From contig AP026167.1 in assembly GCA_030295235.1 (NCBI GenBank), positions 682,001 through 746,000 of the forward strand: a DNA stretch of 64,000 bases, in the 5' to 3' direction. The notes under the pieces are model-generated. The model saw nothing but the letters and a program-made list of their open reading frames with translations. It made no database searches and was not told the origin of the DNA. Shown here one piece after another: positions 28,463 through 56,056 of the stretch. The DNA is from Fistulifera solaris. Taxonomy: Eukaryota. The first letter of the stretch is position 1, and each line of letters opens with the position of its first letter. The translations under genes were made by a program, and so were the position numbers.

Positions 28463-28534
28463 TGGAGGATAGATGATTCGAACACCTGACCTATCGCATG
28501 CAAAGCGATCGCTCTGCCAACTGAGCTAAACCCC
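28463..28534 (-). tRNA. trnA: tRNA-Ala (UGC)
   Basis: GGGG..TAGCTCAGTTGGCAGAGC, anticodon arm ATCGC-TTTGCAT-GCGAT, T-arm AGGTG-TTCGAAT-CATCT, 3' CCTCCA with G3:U70. The acceptor stem appears one G short. Confidence 0.9.
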
Positions 28535-28805
28535 TAATTATCTTTATTAGTAAACTTTTATTTTACATACTGTTATTGTTATTATAATGATAAAAGAGTA
28601 AAAACAATGATCTACGGAGTAGCATTATAATCTTTCAACGGCCAAGCAAGGAGCTTTAAATAAACGAATGTTAACCGGGCCCTATAAGAGACCATCGGTA
28701 AAGTACCGGTACTGTACTTTTGAAGATATTATCTCAATCTACAAGAATGCGAAGTGAAGCTAAAAGCATATACGGACGAAAAACTATCAATTCATTTATG
28801 ACTAG

Positions 28806-33254: not shown

Positions 33255-33837
33255 TCCCAGATTTCCTGGGAATGTAAAAGTTCAAAAAGTTCAGATTTTC
33301 TGGAAACGTGAAAATACCAGACCCCCAGATTTCTGGGAGTACGTAGTACTACGTATGAAGAAACAGCAGGTGCAGATTTTCTGGAAGAGTATCACTCTAG
33401 CTAAAGCTTACTCAGCACGGGGCCAGCTTGAACTATTTGTAAGAAAATGAAAATAGACAACGAGAAAATCAGTCCAAATGTCGAAATTGCATTCTAACTT
33501 TAGGAAATTAGAGAATGAAAAAGACTTTAGTTTGAGGTTTGTCATTTTTTATCACTAACTACTGGTAAATGTGGTGAATACCACGACTTGCTGGGAACGT
33601 AAAAATACAACTGGTCCAGATTTTCTGGAACAAAATTGGAAACATCGCAGGCCCAGATTATCTGGGAATGTGATAATACAACTGGTCCAGATTATCTGGA
33701 CCACATGTAAACTGTAAACACCACACGCCCCGATTTCCTGCGATAGTAGAAAAACAACAGGTCCAGATTTTCTGGTCCACGTGTAAACACCTCACGCCCA
33801 GATTTTCTGGGAACATGAAAATACAAATGGTCCAGAT
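33255..33837 (+). repeat. Diverged copies of the 69-bp CCAGATTTTCTGG repeat family (clusters 33255-33385 and 33590-33837)
   Basis: Repeated CCAGATTT(T/C)CTGG cores with GAACGTGAAAATACAACTGGT and ACCACGTGTAAACACC spacers. Confidence 0.85.
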
Positions 33838-34346: not shown

Positions 34347-34700
34347 TGGTCCAGATTTCTGGACCACGTGTAAACACCAATGGCCCAGATTTTCTGGGAA
34401 CGTGAAAATACAACTGATCTAGATTTTCTGGACCACGTGTAAACACCAATGGCCCAGATTTTCTGGGAACGTGAAAATACAACTGATCTAGATTTTCTGG
34501 ACCACGTGTATACACCACTCACCCAGATTTCCTGGGAACTTGAAATTACAACTGGTCCAGATTTTCTGGACCACGTGTAAACACCACTCGCCCAGAGTTT
34601 CTGGGTACTTGACATCCACATTCTCGGTGTACTTGAAAAACCACATCCCCACATTTTCTGTGGACGTGAAAACCACAGGCCCACATTTCCCTAACAAAGA
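34347..34700 (+). repeat. Best-conserved array of the 69-bp dimeric repeat (~3.5 units, then decaying)
   Basis: Unit CCAGATTTTCTGG-ACCACGTGTAAACACCAATGGC-CCAGATTTTCTGG-GAACGTGAAAATACAACTGAT. Confidence 0.92.
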
Positions 34701-48342: not shown

Positions 48343-49290
48343 ATGAATCAAGACGAGAATCCCTACGATGTGTTAGGCGTATCCGTCAACGCCACCGAAG
48401 CTGACATTAAATCAGCTTACCGCAAAGCGGCGCTGCGCTATCATCCAGACAAACAAACGAACGAGCAAGATCGACAAACTGCAACGGAAAAATTTGCAAA
48501 GTTATCGAATGCTTACGAAATACTCTCAAATCCAGAGCTGAAGCGACAATTCGACATTGAGCAGCAATACAGCCAATACGATCATCGCACTTTTCACGAA
48601 CCGTTTCGGCGAGGACATTTTCATGATCCGTTTCAGGTTTTCGAACAAGTCTTTCGCGAAGAATTTGGTCGATCTAGTCGTTCAACTCCTCGTGGATCTG
48701 GAATGAGAGATTCTTTCTTCTCTCCGGATCCGATGTTCACACGAGGTAGTTTGTTCGACGATCCTTTCTTTTCTTCACGAAGTCAATCACGAGGTGAACA
48801 ACGTGCTGGAGATTCCTCTTCGTTTTTCGATAATGATCCTTTCTTCAGCGCAAGCCCTTTTGCTGGATTTTTCGGAGGTCGAGATCCATTTTCAGAGATG
48901 CGTCGTATGCACGAATCATTTCACGATAGAACTATCGACCGCAATCAAGCCAACAACAGCAACCAACCCGATGGTTACATTACATCGACTTCCACTTTCA
49001 CCCGCATGATTAATGGGAAACAGCAAACAGTGACGGAACGGATTGTGCGGAAACGAGATGGCACGATTGTTGAGCATCACAAGGAGACGACGGGTGATGA
49101 CGATTTCCCAGGAACTGCCGCATTGCCTTTTTCTCACAATAGCAAGGACAAACAGCTAGAACAGCATCCATCGAACCAAAACAATGCGTCCGATTCCAAG
49201 CAGGAGTTGCAGCGACAAGTTACGAAGAATTCCTTGCAACGCCACTCATCGAAAACTCCCAGTGAAGGTCGTCGGGGCTGGTTCTGGTGA
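48343..49290 (+). CDS. DnaJ/Hsp40 protein (J-domain plus G/F-rich region, DNAJB6-like)
   Basis: Motifs PYDVLGV, AYRKAALRYHPDK and AYEILS, DPFF repeats, and an STSTFTRMING C-terminus. Confidence 0.92.
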   Translation: MNQDENPYDVLGVSVNATEADIKSAYRKAALRYHPDKQTNEQDRQTATEKFAKLSNAYEILSNPELKRQFDIEQQYSQYDHRTFHEPFRRGHFHDPFQVFEQVFREEFGRSSRSTPRGSGMRDSFFSPDPMFTRGSLFDDPFFSSRSQSRGEQRAGDSSSFFDNDPFFSASPFAGFFGGRDPFSEMRRMHESFHDRTIDRNQANNSNQPDGYITSTSTFTRMINGKQQTVTERIVRKRDGTIVEHHKETTGDDDFPGTAALPFSHNSKDKQLEQHPSNQNNASDSKQELQRQVTKNSLQRHSSKTPSEGRRGWFW

Positions 49291-49384
49291 ATGCATCATG
49301 AAGTAGGTCTTTGATTCACATTTAGGATTTAGATAATTGTATAGGAATGTAGATGATTAGCGTAATTCTTCCACGGTAGCTATG

Positions 49385-50332
49385 TTAGATTGTCACTTGG
49401 TCGCCTACAGCATGTGTGATTTTGGAAAGCTGCGACAACATGGCCGGCGGCCAAGCAATCGTCTCCGTCAAATATTGTTGGTCAACATATTTGAGTCGTT
49501 GTCGATCGGAGATTTCCAGAAACTTTTGTTGCGCTTCTACCATCTTTCCCGTACCCGCCAAGAAGACCGCCGACGCGGCTTTGACTTCGGGTGCATCCGG
49601 GAACCGATTCTCAATACGTTTCAGCAAATCATATCCTTGCTGCTTCTCATTTAATTGAAATTTGACCATCGCTGCCCGCAACCAATAAGGACTCACTTGA
49701 TTGCCCGTCATGCGAATGGCAACATCATAATTTCGATCCGCCTCTTCGTACAGACCATTGAGTTCACACGCCCGTGCTAGATTTTGCAATACGATATCAT
49801 CGGGACGACCCCGTAAGGTAGCCGCCAATCGCAGATCTGCCAAAGCCTCGGCCGGCCGATTGGTGTTGAGCCGAATGGTCCCTCGATTGAGATACAGGAC
49901 GTACTGATCATTGCAATTGACTTGGGTACACAAATCGATCGATTTTGTGTAAGACACTTCCGCCGCCGCCAAATTCCCAAACGCGGTTTGTGTATTGCCG
50001 AGCGAACTCCAACCGTAGACAAAGTTGGGCGCCATTTGTGTGACTTTTCCGTACAAACGTTGTGCGGCCATTAAATTGCCCTGCAATTCTAACGCACGGC
50101 CTTCCCCGAATATCTTTTTAGCATCGCCAGTGAGTTGTACAAGAATGTTGTTGTTTTCTTCGGCTTGCGCTAGTGGAGGTGCTGCAGTTGCGGGGATCAT
50201 CACCATCGCCGATGCGAGCATCTCTCTTCGCGACAACGCAGGTGATGGTGATGTGGGAAATTGCCATGCTCTAGCGGCGGCGAGCAAGATTGCTGTGATC
50301 AATATTGAACGTACAAAGATTTTATCTGTCAT
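49385..50332 (-). CDS. TPR protein, plastid (probably thylakoid lumen) targeted
   Basis: Signal peptide ending ARA-W, twin-Arg LSRREMLASA with hydrophobic stretch and AQA site, TPR helices, and a W.P.M C-terminal motif. Confidence 0.85.
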   Translation of the reverse strand: MTDKIFVRSILITAILLAAARAWQFPTSPSPALSRREMLASAMVMIPATAAPPLAQAEENNNILVQLTGDAKKIFGEGRALELQGNLMAAQRLYGKVTQMAPNFVYGWSSLGNTQTAFGNLAAAEVSYTKSIDLCTQVNCNDQYVLYLNRGTIRLNTNRPAEALADLRLAATLRGRPDDIVLQNLARACELNGLYEEADRNYDVAIRMTGNQVSPYWLRAAMVKFQLNEKQQGYDLLKRIENRFPDAPEVKAASAVFLAGTGKMVEAQQKFLEISDRQRLKYVDQQYLTETIAWPPAMLSQLSKITHAVGDQVTI

Positions 50333-50393
50333 CTTGAAAAAACTAGGTTACTTTGAAATTATCATTCTCTTTGGCTTTTTATAAAAAAAATGT

Positions 50394-50437
50394 TAGGTTA
50401 ATCATTCAAATAATGTAGGTTAATCATTCAAATAATG
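50394..50437. repeat. Perfect 22-bp tandem duplication
   Basis: TAGGTTAATCATTCAAATAATG x2. Confidence 0.9.
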
Positions 50438-51308
50438 CAGGGCGACGAGATCGATCGTCACCTCGATGCGTTGAGGTTTATGTGGAAGAGAACGGACGGA
50501 TGACGGACGAGCACTAACAATGTATGTTTTGTCTTCTACTTAGTCAGATCTAGGTATAGCAAAGAACGTTTTGTAAAGATCCCATAAAAATGATTGACGG
50601 GGGCTCTGATAGCTTCGACGTAGTAAGAGCTATATAGCAAGAACATTTCGCTCCAAGCCCTGCCCTACAGATGCTTTAACAAAGCCTTCCCACCGCACAC
50701 TATCTCTCTAGGCCTAATGCATAGTAAGATATCATATCAGATTAGCGTCTTCTAAGTATTGTCGACATAGAGGGATGATTTTCCTGGACGCTTCCATAAA
50801 ATATACCCCGAGTATCCGTTTTTGGGCATCAATGTTCAATGTTTACACGTATCCGCCATATCTCCTCGTCGAATGAGATGCATACGCAGACGCGCACACC
50901 CAGACAAACTACACATCGAAAGAGTGCGATTGAAATAACAAGACTGAACAGCATCGCACGTCACGACAATAACAATACCAGTAAACATCCATCGTCGTCG
51001 TATCACGTATCACCCATCATCCTCGTCGAGGCACAAAAGTGCCTCCAGTGGACTTGACATCCATTCTTTCCCCCTTGATAAGATAGATTGAATTTCAAAC
51101 GCCTATTTCGCTGGTGACATACGAGCAGGCCGGGCTCGCAGCTGCGTTCATCATTATTGAAAAATATCCAGAGGCGTATATCGTGACATTTATTCGTGGG
51201 TCGTGGGATCCCAACATTTGGAGAAAACCGTTGCTCGAGACAGAAATACTTAGATTGCTTTCTCTAAATGAATTTGAAATGATTTTGTGAACACAAACTG
51301 ATTTTTGA

Positions 51309-51929
51309 TTTTAGGATAGGAGAAGCATCGCTGAATTTTGCTTCTCTCTTTTTTCGCTGCGTTCTTCTTCTTCTCACATCTCCTCTCGAAGGCGACTGGG
51401 AGAGGTTTGATGTCCTCCCCGTATTCAGTTGTTGCCAAAGCTGTGGCCTGCGATCACAGCTTGGGACCGTATGGTTGAATACTTAGTGGGAGCGCATGAA
51501 GGGTTGTGGTGCGTATGTCCCGAGGAAGGAGGAGTCGTCTCGCGAAAGGGCAACCTCGTGTCGTCTCGACGATTCGCTTGCCTGCTTGCGAGGCTTCCTG
51601 CCTTACCGGAAAACACGCAGTTGGAGCATTGTGCTGGGAAAAGTTCTTCACCTGAGTTGTGGGATCCATGAGGCGTGCCGAAGAACTGCGTGCGCCGGTG
51701 ATTGGTGAAGCAATGGTAACGGTTGAGCGGGGTTTGGGGTTCACCCGCTGAGCAGCTTATGAAAGCCACATTCGCCTTTCCGCTCCCAACCGGATACATG
51801 GGCGTTTGTGATCGCTTGTCGACATCTGCTTAACGTCTTCGGAGCTCTTGCGGTGCTTATGAGTTATCCTAGAAATAGGTTAGCGGTTACGGGCACTAGC
51901 AAGGGTCCCCCATATGTCCCAGCACAATG
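51309..51929 (+). ncRNA. Candidate large structured non-coding RNA, unassigned family
   Basis: More than 10 mutually compatible helices with G-U pairs on the + strand, GCAA and UUCG loops, and a perfect 13-bp pairing 51627-51639/51917-51929. No credible ORF. Confidence 0.55.
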
Positions 51930-53235
51930 AAAATTTGACCACAGCGCCTACATGCTAACATTTGTTCATTTCTAAACCAAGTAAACTAAAATAATATATA
52001 AAATACAGCTGATGGATGCGCGTGGCGGGTACTGGCGACGGAGAAGCTCCTCCATCTGCTGCTGTATTCCGTGTGTTCAAACAGATTCATGTTTCATGGT
52101 CGTGAGGATTGTCATTTGCGCTAGTTTCTCTCCGCCTTTTTGTTGTGTTACGCTCTGGCGAATGCTATCAGTTGAACTGAAAAATTGCGAAACCAATCGA
52201 GCCACCAATCTCGGTGCAGTACTATGCTTTGTTGCAAGCTATTTGTTGCAAGCTATCCGTCGACACGGAGATTTTCAGAACTCGCTTTCGAATATTCCCG
52301 CTACAGCCAGTGTGTAGGAACTTCCACCTACGTCCAATTCATTCATTTCCCAGTACAAAATTTTCCATTTCCAACACGTTGAAACAGCGCATCGTAAGTC
52401 TAGTTGATTAAAATACCACAGATCCGCTTACATTGGCTGCAGTTGATAGTAGATCCTCGTTGCGCAAACATCCAACAGAATGCGGTATCGCCGCTGCTTT
52501 GACTAGCTATTGAGCAGATCGCAAGGAAAACTCTTCCTCATGACTTTTGTACATTGGCAACTCCATCGTTATTTGCCGGCTTCGCCTCAAATTCTTCCAA
52601 AGTAGCCTTTAGTTTGTTTGTCAAAGCACGAAAGAGGCGAGAGAAGGGCGTTCCGTCCTACCAACAACAAAGAGCTGAGGAAAAGCGCAAAAAGACGTTG
52701 CAATCAAAAGTCAAAGTAAAGCCTGCATTATGCCACCCAACTTGCTCCCAAGATTCCCCAACAGGGCCCGAAATGGACGGAAAACTCAGAAGCTCGATTC
52801 GGTTGCTTTGGGCTCTACTGTTCGAATGCAACTTTCCTCAAAACACGATGGATCGTCTCGAAACCAACCACATCATCTGGCCTCATCCTTTTAGGTAATG
52901 AAAAAGCGCCGTTACTCAAACCCTCTTTCTCTCAGAATCGTAGGCTGCATTCCAGTACGATTATGCGAGTTCAGTGCGGGTCGTCAGATATTCCGCGGCA
53001 TTTGATCCGTTCGTATCTCTTATCTTTCGTCAACAAATATTCAAGATGAAGCCACACCTCCTTACACCAATAAAATTTCGCCGAAATTAGCCATTAGTCT
53101 TGCACGACGATAGTGGCGATCCTCGAATGACTAAGGGCAACAATCCAGATGGGCTTTCATTGGATGATCTTCTTCGAAGTTGTGCGAACAAATTCCTTTG
53201 CATTATCCCATGACCGTAATTGGATACTCTCTGCA

Positions 53236-54327
53236 CTAAGCTGCCTCATCATTGTTCACGTCCTCAAAACGGTCATTGCCTATAATGAAATTCCACAGCA
53301 GATCACTAGCTCGAGGTACACGGAAAAAGCAGCGAACACTATGCAAAAGGACGAGTTTCAGCGAGGGAAGGGCGCTGATCAAAGCCTCGTCCAAGAATGA
53401 AAAATCTCGAATTTCGGAAAATTGCTCGGCTTTGAGCATGGAATCCAGCAGAAAAGGTTCTTCGCGCTCAATTTCCTCAAAAATTCGATTTAGCCGTAGA
53501 GACTGGTCGAGAACGTCAATATCACAGTCCAAAAGGAAGTCTTGTAAATCGGATCGTACTTCTAGGATTTGTTTCATATCGGCCTGCTCGAACGCGATAT
53601 CAATAGAGCGCGAAATAGCATTATGTGATGCAATGATACGCATCTTGATGATCGCAAGTGCGACGAATAGTGGCAGTTGTAGATTTCCCATATCGGCTGT
53701 GCTGTTTTCTTCAAATATATCAAAATAGCGACAATTAGGTTCGATCGGATAGGGACGACTCCGGCCATGTATCCCTTCCTCGAACCAGTATCGAATATAA
53801 GCGTAAGCTTCGTCATCTCGATTCAAATAGAGAAGAATGAATGGTATTCGAACACGAGCTTCGAGATTGTAACCAGCCCTTACTTTTATAACCTTTTCGC
53901 AGTGAAAGAGTGCAGCTTCCCAGACTTGTTTTATCTCACACTCATAGGCTGAATGCCAAAAGACGGTTGCCAGGGAAGTTAGATCACATAAGTATTCGCC
54001 CACTTCTGCAGACAAAATGTTATCGTTAGCTTCAAAATAACGCTGGACGACCGCACTGTCGTCCGACAAAACGTCCGAATCTTGAAGCGGGACGATTGAC
54101 TGTTCTACGCTGTACCATTCAGCCATCATTAGATTGCAGCGCTCGCGATGCCGTTTATCATGCTTCTTCTGACATTGGGTACTACAGTACCAAGCCATGT
54201 GGCAGCGTGAACACCGTATAAAGTCCGAGAAGACAATTCGATTTTCGTAGAAACGACAAGCAAAGCAGTAAGGCTCTTTCAAATTGGGGTCTCTTCCTTC
54301 ATAGTAAGGTGTTCTAATGAAATCCAT
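53236..54327 (-). CDS. MYND zinc-finger protein
   Basis: CFAC...CSRCHMAWYCSTQCQKKHDKRHRERC, followed by RVRIPFILLYLNRDDEAYAYIRYW. Confidence 0.88.
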   Translation of the reverse strand: MDFIRTPYYEGRDPNLKEPYCFACRFYENRIVFSDFIRCSRCHMAWYCSTQCQKKHDKRHRERCNLMMAEWYSVEQSIVPLQDSDVLSDDSAVVQRYFEANDNILSAEVGEYLCDLTSLATVFWHSAYECEIKQVWEAALFHCEKVIKVRAGYNLEARVRIPFILLYLNRDDEAYAYIRYWFEEGIHGRSRPYPIEPNCRYFDIFEENSTADMGNLQLPLFVALAIIKMRIIASHNAISRSIDIAFEQADMKQILEVRSDLQDFLLDCDIDVLDQSLRLNRIFEEIEREEPFLLDSMLKAEQFSEIRDFSFLDEALISALPSLKLVLLHSVRCFFRVPRASDLLWNFIIGNDRFEDVNNDEAA

Positions 54328-54769
54328 TTGTTCATCAGAACTGAATTTATCGCTTTTTTTAGTTAAAAAGAGCGAGATGAATGAATCCTCCTCTTGTTGT
54401 TCCCTTGATTTTTTCTTTTCATGTGTAAAACAAGATGGACAGAAGTTCCGTCAGTCTCGAAATGCTCCTCAATTTTTTGTTCACGAAATGACAAATCTGA
54501 CAGAAATCCCGTCTGCTACGATGCTTTTCAGAGATCATCTTCTGTTGTCTGTTGTATAGGCAAAGATAATTCAGACAGAATTTCCGTATTCTTAGAATGA
54601 TGCTTTGTTCATTCGCCGTATTGCAAACTCCAGCACCAAAGAAAACGATGTGGAATAAAACGTTAGGACTCTTTGCTGCATAACATGAATCTTCATAAGC
54701 ATTACCTCTTCATTTCATTCATCAATAAACGAGTATAACAAGGACCCTGAGAAAGACGCTGTCTCGACG

Positions 54770-56056
54770 ATGGATGAAGAGCAACAGCAAATAAGGGAGG
54801 AGGGAAACGAAGAAGCAACGCAGCACGAACATGCAACTCTGAACATTGCTGCTAGGGAATTAGAATCCATTCTTTTTCCGTTAGCTAACGCGGTAATGCC
54901 TACTTTGTGTCCGGAGCAAAACGAGGCTGCTACTTTTCAGCAAGAAAGAACCGACAATCACAAAGAAGATGTTCGTGAACGACGATGGAGGACTCGGTAC
55001 GAACAACTCGTGCAATACAAAACCCAACACGGACATTGCAATGTCACTGTCACTGACTTAGTTGACAGCAGAGCCTTTAGTGACTGGATTCGCGATCAAC
55101 GACGTCTGTGTCGACTCGGGAAACTAAAATCCGAGCGGAAGCAATTGTTGCATCAGATTGGGTTTGTGTGGAGCAATCCGGTTTGGATGGAAAAATACCA
55201 GGAGTTGTTGCAATTCAAAGAAAAGCACGGACATTGTAAAGTACCGACGAACTACAAAGAGAATCCGCGATTGTCGAGTTGGGTGCGGAATTTGCGCTGC
55301 GATCAGCTGCAAGGGAAAGTGCGGACAGATCGAAAGCAAATGTTGGATGAAATAGGCTTTGTTTGGCGTAAAACACCGGAAGATCGCGAGAAAGAAAAAG
55401 ACACAAAAACGACTACGAGAACTGATACGGCTAGTACCCGACTCGGAATTGAAAGAAGACGAACTGGCAATCAAACGATCCATGATCGAAAAGAAGAAGC
55501 CGAAAAGAAGAAACAAAAAGAAATCCGAGAACAGAAATTACAAGAGAGTGTCTTGCATCAAAAATGGCTCGAGCGCTATCAAGAACTCAAGGCTTTTCAT
55601 GAGAAGAATAGTCATTTTCATGTGACTTTGGCGAACGGAGGTCAACCTTTGGGAGATTGGATGCGCGATCAACGACGTCGTCACAAAGAAGGAAAATTGC
55701 CCGCGATTCGCAAGCAATTATTGGACGAAATCGGGTTTGCTTGGTCGTATTCCGTTTGGATGGATCATTACAACCAGCTTGTTAAATTCAAAAATGCTCA
55801 TGGACATTGTCGTCTTTCACCTTCTCACGAGAACCAAACCTTGAACGTTTGGGTGAAGAATCAACGACACGATGAAATAGCCGGTCGATTATCTAGTGCG
55901 GCCAGGTCCAGCCGTACAATGTCATCACGACGCAGACGCGTCAAGTGGACGATCCGTTGCGGAACAATAAAATATGAAGCAAGGAAGCAAGCAAGAAAGG
56001 AAAGGTTGTTCTGTATTACTGAGTATCATTTGTCATTAGAAGATTGTCTTGAATAA
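54770..56056 (+). CDS. Helicase-associated (HA) domain repeat protein; 4 HA repeats, the last truncated
   Basis: Repeats of W...Y.EL..FK..HGHC.V......L..WV..QR......L...RK..L..IGF.W. Confidence 0.88.
   Translation: MDEEQQQIREEGNEEATQHEHATLNIAARELESILFPLANAVMPTLCPEQNEAATFQQERTDNHKEDVRERRWRTRYEQLVQYKTQHGHCNVTVTDLVDSRAFSDWIRDQRRLCRLGKLKSERKQLLHQIGFVWSNPVWMEKYQELLQFKEKHGHCKVPTNYKENPRLSSWVRNLRCDQLQGKVRTDRKQMLDEIGFVWRKTPEDREKEKDTKTTTRTDTASTRLGIERRRTGNQTIHDRKEEAEKKKQKEIREQKLQESVLHQKWLERYQELKAFHEKNSHFHVTLANGGQPLGDWMRDQRRRHKEGKLPAIRKQLLDEIGFAWSYSVWMDHYNQLVKFKNAHGHCRLSPSHENQTLNVWVKNQRHDEIAGRLSSAARSSRTMSSRRRRVKWTIRCGTIKYEARKQARKERLFCITEYHLSLEDCLE

Follow-up and report, generated by a model that had tools for sequence, protein, structure and literature searches.

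A dispersed multi-copy element on a Fistulifera solaris contig, possibly encoding an abundant structured non-coding RNA

Families of the small nuclear RNAs (snRNAs) U1 to U5 and of the small nucleolar RNA (snoRNA) U3 comprise tens of dispersed copies with a near-identical transcribed core and drifting flanks, and their RNAs are abundant, non-coding and structured. Short interspersed nuclear elements (SINEs) and other non-autonomous retroelements are also multi-copy, non-coding and transcribed; they combine a conserved module with variable parts, as in the CORE-SINE type, and may carry a selected hairpin, like the 3′ stem-loops shared by long interspersed nuclear elements (LINEs) and SINEs. The commonest repeats of diatoms are Ty1/copia-type retrotransposons. 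The RNAs of RNase P/MRP and telomerase as well as group I/II introns are normally encoded by single-copy genes or lie inside genes. Apart from the universal structured RNAs, to our knowledge hardly any that are specific to the lineage have been catalogued in diatoms and their relatives. Here, an element with traits of several of these systems is described in a stretch of 64,000 nucleotides of contig AP026167.1 from Fistulifera solaris (positions 682,001 to 746,000 of the forward strand), which is called the window in the following. It consists of a multi-copy unit of ~1 kb (~51050-52070 of the window, + strand) with a conserved, RNA-rich core of ~540 nt (51389-51932), the candidate functional RNA domain. 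The element is multi-copy in DNA, present in RNA-type libraries, without a coding signal or a known RNA family, folds in a strand-specific manner in two domains, carries a hairpin with compensatory changes and has a core less diverged than its upstream part. The reading favoured here, with a confidence somewhat short of even, is a family of dispersed gene copies that encode an abundant structured non-coding RNA (ncRNA) of 0.5-0.6 kb, transcribed from the + strand.

The copy number was estimated from public sequencing data. A k-mer search identified six runs holding part of 50400-53200, and the contigs of four of them (X1, X2, X5, and X6) were compared with 49000-55000. These data are contigs, from which presence can be read, whereas transcript ends and strand cannot; depth is the sum over all contigs at least 85% alike, which is rough for copy number and poor for expression. 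The DNA-like run X1 covers 30 of 30 bins. Outside the element its depth is ~18 in most of them, and one contig of 3265 nt is identical to 52000-55000. With this even coverage and the identical contig, X1 looks like genomic DNA from the source or from a near relative. Over the element, the summed depth of X1 amounts to 301, 493, 478, 824, and 606 in the five bins of 51010-52014, and to 155-166 at 52026-52039, with a mean of 56.6 over 52015-52215 and 45 in 50809-51009. Individual X1 contigs with depths of 285-429 span the core. Across the 6-kb stretch, and by depth mostly at the element, 170 X1 contigs were found, of which 57 are at least 99% alike, 38 between 95 and 99%, 41 between 90 and 95%, and 34 below 90%. 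The ~1-kb unit is thus present in roughly 16-45 haploid-equivalent copies of the source genome. The edges of the unit, taken from the summed X1 depth, are not sharp to the base, and loose ends of X1 contigs at 51087/88 still match the window further upstream, so that the unit begins left of 51087. No second copy was found inside the 64 kb when 51000-52100 was compared with the window by blastn.

The copies do not differ evenly along the unit. Counted among the best-supported variants, with 124 less-supported ones beyond them, the core 51389-51932 shows three majority differences from the window (51548, 51698, and 51820) and no indel. The 301 nt upstream (51088-51388), which are multi-copy in DNA, more variable among copies and RNA-poor, show eight majority differences and 2-nt insertions at 51215-51218 and 51324. 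The contrast of 8/301 nt with 3/544 nt gives p = 0.02 in a Fisher test, and by these listed differences the core of this copy departs ~5 times less from the family majority than the sequence upstream of it does. Since a dead repeat copy should decay evenly, this unevenness was counted in favor of constraint on the core. At 51932/33, contigs of X1, X2, and X6 break or turn unlike the window. Beyond it, an alignment of the variants by eye is still possible; X6 is ~63% alike over 30 nt and keeps 9 of the 10 bases of a short motif, CATGCTAACA (51950-51959, + strand), which was retained in two otherwise diverged downstream variants (loose ends of X1 and X6, by eye). Runs X5 and X6 contain the core as well: X5 (organism B) has one 288-nt contig over 51586-51873 with 2 differences, and in X6, an rRNA-depleted freshwater metatranscriptome, the range 51389-51932 is represented by five contigs that differ from the window at 2-9 places (92-98% identical). 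Both cover nothing of the 6 kb besides the core, which low abundance of the organism could explain, and both may derive from small amounts of the same species or a close one. A stretch that X2, X5, or X6 leaves uncovered is no sign of absence.

The core is also the part that stands out in X2. Coverage of this run is confined mostly to gene bodies (100 + 64 for a DnaJ gene, 2-6 for a tetratricopeptide repeat (TPR) gene and ~2 for a zf-MYND gene) with almost none of the surrounding non-coding DNA, which is a transcriptome-like pattern. Over the element the depth is 44-46 in 51010-51411, then 1294, 457, and 253 in the bins of 51412-52014, with the peak of 1294 over 51412-51612, and 1.09 in 52015-52215. 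Relative to the core, this corresponds to ~3% upstream and ~0.1% downstream. The summed depth of the RNA-type library on the element is ~8-13 times that of the neighboring DnaJ gene. One X2 contig reaches 51972 and continues for 37 nt that resemble the next bases of the window. RNA-like contigs stop near an A/T-rich stretch (51977-52010, + strand), a candidate 3′-end region of the primary transcript. In another X2 contig, at least 255 nt attached to the core at 51406 are, by eye, unlike the window just upstream.

The initial annotation, which had been made from the sequence alone, described 51309-51929 as a structured RNA, GC-richer than its flanks and lacking a credible open reading frame (ORF) and any known family; the last three points hold. 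The GC content is 0.52-0.57 across 51300-51900 and 0.41-0.47 in the flanks. The longest frames encode 134 aa (- strand), 86 aa (+), and 73 aa (+). No match above the cut-off was obtained with Pfam for 21 frames of the surrounding gap, and searches covering 5.8 billion clustered proteins and 1.84 billion representatives brought up no relatives of the three frames (the 134-aa frame was searched at near and shorter lengths, the 86-aa frame at near lengths and the 73-aa frame against the 1.84 billion representatives). The sole ATG of the 134-aa frame is abolished by an X6 variant at 51799, and the two majority differences in the 73-aa frame, 51548 and 51698, are both non-synonymous in our own reading. 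A protein-coding exon was rejected on the lack of relatives and domains, this lost start codon and the 2-nt indels upstream.

Searches for known RNAs gave a similar result. None of the 4227 models of Rfam 15, which include signal recognition particle RNA, RNase P/MRP, snRNAs, U3, telomerase RNAs, ribozymes, group I/II introns and rRNA, matched the element at gathering thresholds, and with E-values up to 10 only chance-level matches were obtained on 1701 and 581 bases, of which Flavi_TBFV_SL6 (14.8 bits, gathering 38.3) and ceN23-1 (15 bits, gathering 40) overlap it. The sole Rfam match of the 64 kb at the gathering threshold is a tRNA gene at 28463-28535 (- strand, 54.7 bits). ARAGORN predicted no tRNA in 50300-53300. 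A telomerase RNA was rejected, too: the telomere repeat of diatoms is TTAGGG, although that of the organism here may differ, and CCCTAA occurs nine times in the window (both strands), with none between 40498 and 58437 and thus no template on either strand of the element, as had been noted before. An organelle insert was dismissed on the GC content of 0.52-0.57, the lack of a match to an organellar gene or rRNA and the many variant contexts. A fragment of an rDNA spacer was judged unlikely, given the heterogeneous flanks among copies and the missing rRNA match. By-eye resemblances to an Sm site, to C/D and H/ACA boxes and to a U1-like AUACUUA at 51478 were discarded, as none is kept or arranged as the respective family requires. 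Outside the runs, a 20-mer of the core had no exact match in metagenome contigs, and an 18-mer had 14 (L001-L014), about the number expected by chance; all of these are chance matches of 18-32 nt without flanking similarity. Two core words in viral contigs and one in prokaryote genome contigs gave no exact match either; such scans overlook any copy differing inside the word. No description of such an element was found in full-text searches of the literature, which is weak evidence of its being unpublished.

All 15 motif pairs that had been listed for the fold are present in 51309-51929 on the + strand, with a single coordinate slip: CGCTCCCA begins at 51781 instead of 51788. Perfect Watson-Crick stems of at least 8 bp number 7, against 2.12 +/- 1.51 in 300 dinucleotide shuffles, of which two reached 7; a stem of at least 13 bp appeared in one of the 300. 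The minimum free energy (MFE) of the whole region is -236.2 kcal/mol on the + strand, with z = -3.70 (20 shuffles) and z = -2.55 (100 shuffles, 2 of them as good); the - strand gave z = -2.66, and -2.30 with 100 shuffles. The advantage over shuffled sequences is modest for the region as a whole on both strands (-2.55/-2.30) and clear for two domains, on the + strand only. Compared with 159 other 621-nt segments of the 64 kb after regression on GC content, one was more stable on the + strand (residual z of the candidate -3.1), and on the - strand 37 of the 159 were as stable or more. The upstream part 51088-51399 shows no folding signal (z = +0.70 on + and -1.07 on -). The stablest folds of the 64 kb in this comparison, on both strands and with z down to -4.7, surround a ~34-nt palindromic motif, TACAACTGGTCCAGATT.TCTGGACCAC.TGTA, which occurs at least three times (33606-33632, 33677-33710, and 34546-34579) and looks like a palindromic repeat at the DNA level or an element resembling a miniature inverted-repeat transposable element (MITE).

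The domains were folded as single segments with 200 shuffles per strand. The first predicted hairpin domain (51415-51492, + strand, -27.8 kcal/mol) consists of a GTATTCAGTTGT/ATGGTTGAATAC stem enclosing AAGCTGTG/CACAGCTT and is part of the MFE structure of 51380-51960. The segment has z = -2.43 on the + strand (2/200 as good) and z = -3.00 on the - strand (1/200); being significant on both, it is uninformative on the strand. The second domain (51520-51609, + strand, -44.9 kcal/mol) is a long arm with the stems AGGAAG/CTTCCT and GAGTCGTC/GACGATTC. Here, the segment 51520-51612 reaches z = -4.20 on the + strand, with none of 200 shuffles as good, and z = -1.09 on the - strand (28/200). The majority C at 51548 removes one terminal G-U pair of its inner helix. 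The hairpins of 51421-51482 and those of this arm, all named in the initial annotation, are supported by the present results or compatible with them. The third domain is a 3′ hairpin of ~30 bp (51841-51909, + strand), which is closed by a GAAA tetraloop of the GNRA type at 51872-51875; its segment 51838-51912 has z = -3.22 on the + strand (2/200) and z = -0.46 on the - strand (56/200).

The 3′ hairpin is the only helix with covariation support. An X6 contig with a loose end past 51852 was aligned by eye on 51854-51883 and compared with the MFE structure computed from the window only. All six differences preserve pairing, two of them as double compensations, and no pair is broken. At 51866/51881 an A-U pair became U-A, and at 51871/51876 an A-U pair became C-G, which turns CCUA-GAAA-UAGG into CCUC-GAAA-GAGG. 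The changes at 51883 (G-U to A-U) and 51858 (U-G to C-G) lead from wobble to Watson-Crick pairs and are sensible only on the + strand. When six substitutions were placed at random in this segment, a fraction of 0.0003 of 200,000 placements broke no pair and contained at least two compensations. The variants listed from 51548 onwards occupy 15 positions, of which 8 keep the predicted pair, including 51800 (G-U to A-U) and 51820 (G-C to G-U), 2 break it, and 5 (51698, 51799, 51812, 51813, and 51818) are predicted to be unpaired. Covariation supports the apical part of one predicted hairpin and not the whole fold.

The earlier description had included a 13-bp long-range pseudoknot. The perfect complementarity between 51627-51639 and 51917-51929 (+ strand) is real, and pair probabilities of 0.79-1.0 were obtained for it from the partition function of 51380-51960. 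Its 3′ arm lies at the very end of the conserved core, where the contigs of the runs diverge. No listed variant falls in the helix, which is a sequence-predicted pairing and neutral as to covariation. The pseudoknot topology was not confirmed: the helix is nested in the MFE structure, and a pseudoknotted alternative is about equal in energy. With the long arm (51487/51781 etc.) enforced and the 13-nt arms left free, -204.2 kcal/mol was obtained, and adding the 13-bp duplex (-22.5) yields ~-226.7 kcal/mol before a pseudoknot penalty, compared with -230.6 kcal/mol for the nested optimum in which the 13-bp helix replaces the long arm. Perfect inverted repeats of at least 13 bp and at most 700 nt apart occur at two loci in the 64 kb against ~0.7 expected by a rough estimate; judged against the entire window, the 13-bp repeat does not stand out by itself. 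The other locus is an 18-bp perfect inverted repeat, 63134-63151/63536-63553, with its arms ~400 nt apart. An imperfect second partner of the 5′ arm was also noticed: TTTCCCAGTACAA (52346-52358) is complementary to 51629-51641 at 12 of 13 positions and sits ~700 nt downstream, outside the multi-copy unit.

At the 5′ side, neither the exact limit proposed for the RNA nor the closing helix was confirmed. The arms of the presumed closing helix, 51309-19/51864-74, are indeed complementary (11 bp, two of them G-U), but the helix itself is contradicted, since its 3′ arm lies inside the covariation-supported hairpin (51860-51889), its 5′ arm falls within the part that varies among copies and is poor in RNA, and the majority C at 51314 (depth 105/124) breaks the pair G51314-C51869. 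The base pairs of the hairpins at 51320-46 and 51376-51413 are present, but lie outside or at the edge of the conserved RNA-rich part. The former is weakened further, as 6 of its 8 bp are kept in another copy (X1 loose end at 51342, by eye). An undescribed structured ncRNA remains a fair reading of this locus, because the element is non-coding, matches no Rfam family, occurs in RNA-type libraries and shows two folds confined to the + strand and one compensated hairpin; it is, however, one of tens of repeat copies and not a lone gene. The ideas of a ribozyme, an internal ribosome entry site or a telomerase-type scaffold gained no support.

The window is gene-dense and eukaryotic, and the element lies in a 2.9-kb gap without long ORFs. 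This gap is bordered upstream by the TPR gene (49388-50347, - strand) and downstream by the zf-MYND gene (53239-54450, - strand). A comparison of the TPR protein with the ESM Atlas gave both eukaryotic algal and cyanobacterial TPR clusters and was indecisive as to the taxon; the most features, 222, were shared with a cluster from Bacillariophyta. Also near the element are the DnaJ gene, a gene with helicase-associated (HA) domain repeats and a CobN/Mg-chelatase gene. For the neighboring genes, second contigs with 2-10% divergence were found. In particular, the DnaJ 3′ end and a portion of the TPR gene (49020-49886) occur in two versions of similar depth in X1 as well as in X2, the first being that of the window and the second differing by ~10% (32 differences plus 7 gap letters in 324 nt, and 15 differences in 157 nt). 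The two versions point to diverged haplotypes, subgenomes or paralogous loci that are both expressed. One of the diverged second contigs seems to enter the element via an X1 joint at 50948/51087 (40-nt side). A further X1 contig (depth 15.3, 24-nt side) links 50954 to 54856 and skips 3.9 kb, including the element and the zf-MYND gene; either the other haplotype differs in structure here, or a short sequence common to both places has produced an artefact. Both joints are possible second-haplotype or paralogous variants. If the 50948/51087 contig represents the sister locus, the insertion would be old, though the core is 99.4% identical to the family majority. Downstream of the element, the gap contains a 14-nt unit, TTTGTTGCAAGCTA, which is perfectly duplicated in tandem at 52228-52255.

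Compared with the snRNA and snoRNA families, whose copy number, core conservation and RNA abundance it resembles, the element shows a short conserved motif ~20 nt past the core, at a place reminiscent of the 3′-box of snRNA genes. Unlike these families, it has a core of ~540 nt, which is 2-3 times longer, and no snRNA or snoRNA model of Rfam matches it even at E-values up to 10. The variants do not retain the Sm-like AAUUUGA that follows the core, as judged by eye, and no C/D or H/ACA arrangement was recognised by eye. With RNase P/MRP RNA, telomerase RNA and group I/II introns it shares several long hairpins, loops of the GAAA, GCAA and UUCG types and a strong long-range pairing, but it differs from them in the absence of an Rfam match and of a telomere-template motif.

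Several observations weigh against the reading as a family of genes for an abundant ncRNA. The assignment of X2 to RNA is an automatic guess (‘RNA?’) combined with our reading of its coverage. The X2 contig with unlike-looking sequence upstream of 51406 is a hint that the core may also occur in different surroundings, as mobile modules do. X5 and X6 possibly derive from the same species, and for this reason no conservation across species is claimed. The covariation comes from one 30-nt stretch of one contig aligned by eye, the variants at 51548 and 51817 break predicted pairs, and the z-score of the whole region is modest and alike on both strands. Finally, no promoter, cap, terminator or protein partner was identified.

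With tens of copies, an origin from a transposon becomes possible. In this case, the element would be a repeat derived from a non-autonomous retroelement, a solo long terminal repeat (LTR) or a SINE-like unit with a shared core, and its structure would be selected for the life cycle of the element, for example for packaging, export or recognition by a reverse transcriptase, rather than for a function of the host. We consider this rather unlikely, yet the main competitor. A non-coding unit of ~1 kb in tens of copies with 85% to >99% identity, strong transcription and an isolated position in an unusually long gene-free gap of 2.9 kb would all suit it, as would the rightward climb of the X1 depth from 301 to 824, which is seen in 5′-truncated retro-copies, the RNA-like contig linking the core to apparently unrelated sequence and the A4-5 run after the core at 51930-33. 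The compensatory changes are compatible with it as well, since selected hairpins occur in the RNAs of transposons too, for instance as the 3′ stem-loops common to LINE/SINE partners. Against it, 50800-52500 contains no terminal inverted or long direct repeats, the gap holds no remnant of a reverse transcriptase, integrase or transposase (Pfam, 21 frames), the sequence past the seemingly sharp edges is still alignable among copies, unlike insertion flanks, no second copy lies in the 64 kb, and neutral decay does not predict a core ~5 times nearer to the family majority than the upstream part. The individual classes fit incompletely, too. For a SINE, the element is long at ~1 kb and has neither a tRNA-, 5S- or 7SL-derived head nor a proper poly(A) or simple-repeat tail; a SINE with a Pol III head was rejected, as there is no tRNA in 50300-53300 and no match to tRNA, 5S or signal recognition particle RNA, and as a retro-copy tail only the A4-5 run was seen, while the sequence beyond is alignable among copies and the unit edges are not sharp. 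Size, copy number, a putative internal promoter with a transcribed part and isolation between genes are shared with solo LTRs of the Ty1/copia type; in contrast to these, the X2 depth upstream and downstream of the core does not follow the U3-R-U5 pattern of full elements, no internal retroelement genes lie nearby, and TG..CA ends with a target duplication were not located in this single copy. No direct repeat of more than 15 nt occurs in 50800-52500, so that the element is not a terminal-repeat retrotransposon in miniature (TRIM) or a large retrotransposon derivative (LARD). A MITE or another DNA transposon was rejected, as none of the seven inverted pairs in 50800-52500 joins the left (~51050-51100) to the right edge (~52040-52070), and the two unit edges are not complementary by eye. 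The omega-RNA of TnpB/Fanzor elements is a structured RNA at the right end of the transposon, beside or overlapping the TnpB/Fanzor gene; such a transposon-encoded guide RNA was discarded, since the gap contains no TnpB/Fanzor ORF or domain and the copies are alignable past the end of the core.

It is improbable that the element is a transcribed multi-copy repeat or duplicated DNA without any functional structure, whose stems result from a G+U-rich composition and from the selection of the best-looking stretch. The modest whole-region z-score of -2.2 to -2.6, similar on both strands with 100 shuffles, would agree with such an origin, and so would the insignificance of the 13-bp repeat at window scale, the ~2 stems of 8 bp expected by chance, the two variants that break predicted pairs and the single short comparison behind the covariation. 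On the other hand, it does not account for 7 stems where 2.1 are expected (2/300 shuffles), for domain z-scores of -4.2 and -3.2 confined to the + strand, for six of six differences that preserve pairs with two double compensations (p ~0.0003) and for a core more strongly conserved than its flanks. Least probable of all, in our estimate, is a multi-copy gene whose protein-coding or small-ORF transcript would contain the core as a module of its untranslated region (UTR), with the hairpin as a regulatory element of that UTR, or as a short-peptide mRNA. RNA-like contigs do seem to end in the A/T-rich region near 52010, like polyadenylated Pol II transcripts, there are ATG-initiated + strand frames of 22, 66, and 70 codons (by eye), and the core is connected to at least 255 nt of other upstream sequence in one contig; but no frame has relatives in the protein collections searched or a Pfam match, and both majority differences of the 73-aa frame change the amino acid.

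If the element belongs to a dispersed family of RNA genes, its core (~51389/51406 to 51932) would be the functional RNA, with a multi-domain fold of long hairpins that carry loops of the GNRA and UUCG types. The hairpin domains would be drawn together by long-range pairing, for example by the 13-bp helix, and by analogy the RNA might act in trans as the scaffold of a ribonucleoprotein (RNP). The + strand transcript would begin near 51400 and end between 51930 and 52010. The variable ~300 nt upstream would carry the promoter, and the part at 51088-51388 may accordingly be read as promoter or leader. The 80 nt downstream, with CATGCTAACA followed by the A/T-rich stretch, would serve 3′-end formation, and the motif itself may be a processing or termination signal. 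A bolder proposal, which we hold to be doubtful, is an undescribed class of ~540-nt abundant multi-domain ncRNAs encoded by a concertedly evolving gene family of a diatom-like alga, with a new RNP scaffold or catalytic RNA built on the 13-bp helix and the GNRA-capped arms.

Should the element turn out to be an ordinary transposon fragment, it would show that a reading of stems by eye needs a check of the copy number first. If, instead, the 0.5-kb RNA is abundant and multi-copy and its structure is selected, it would be a new component of the cellular RNPs or the functional RNA of an uncharacterised family of mobile elements, and in both of these cases a useful marker, tractable for structure probing and pull-downs.

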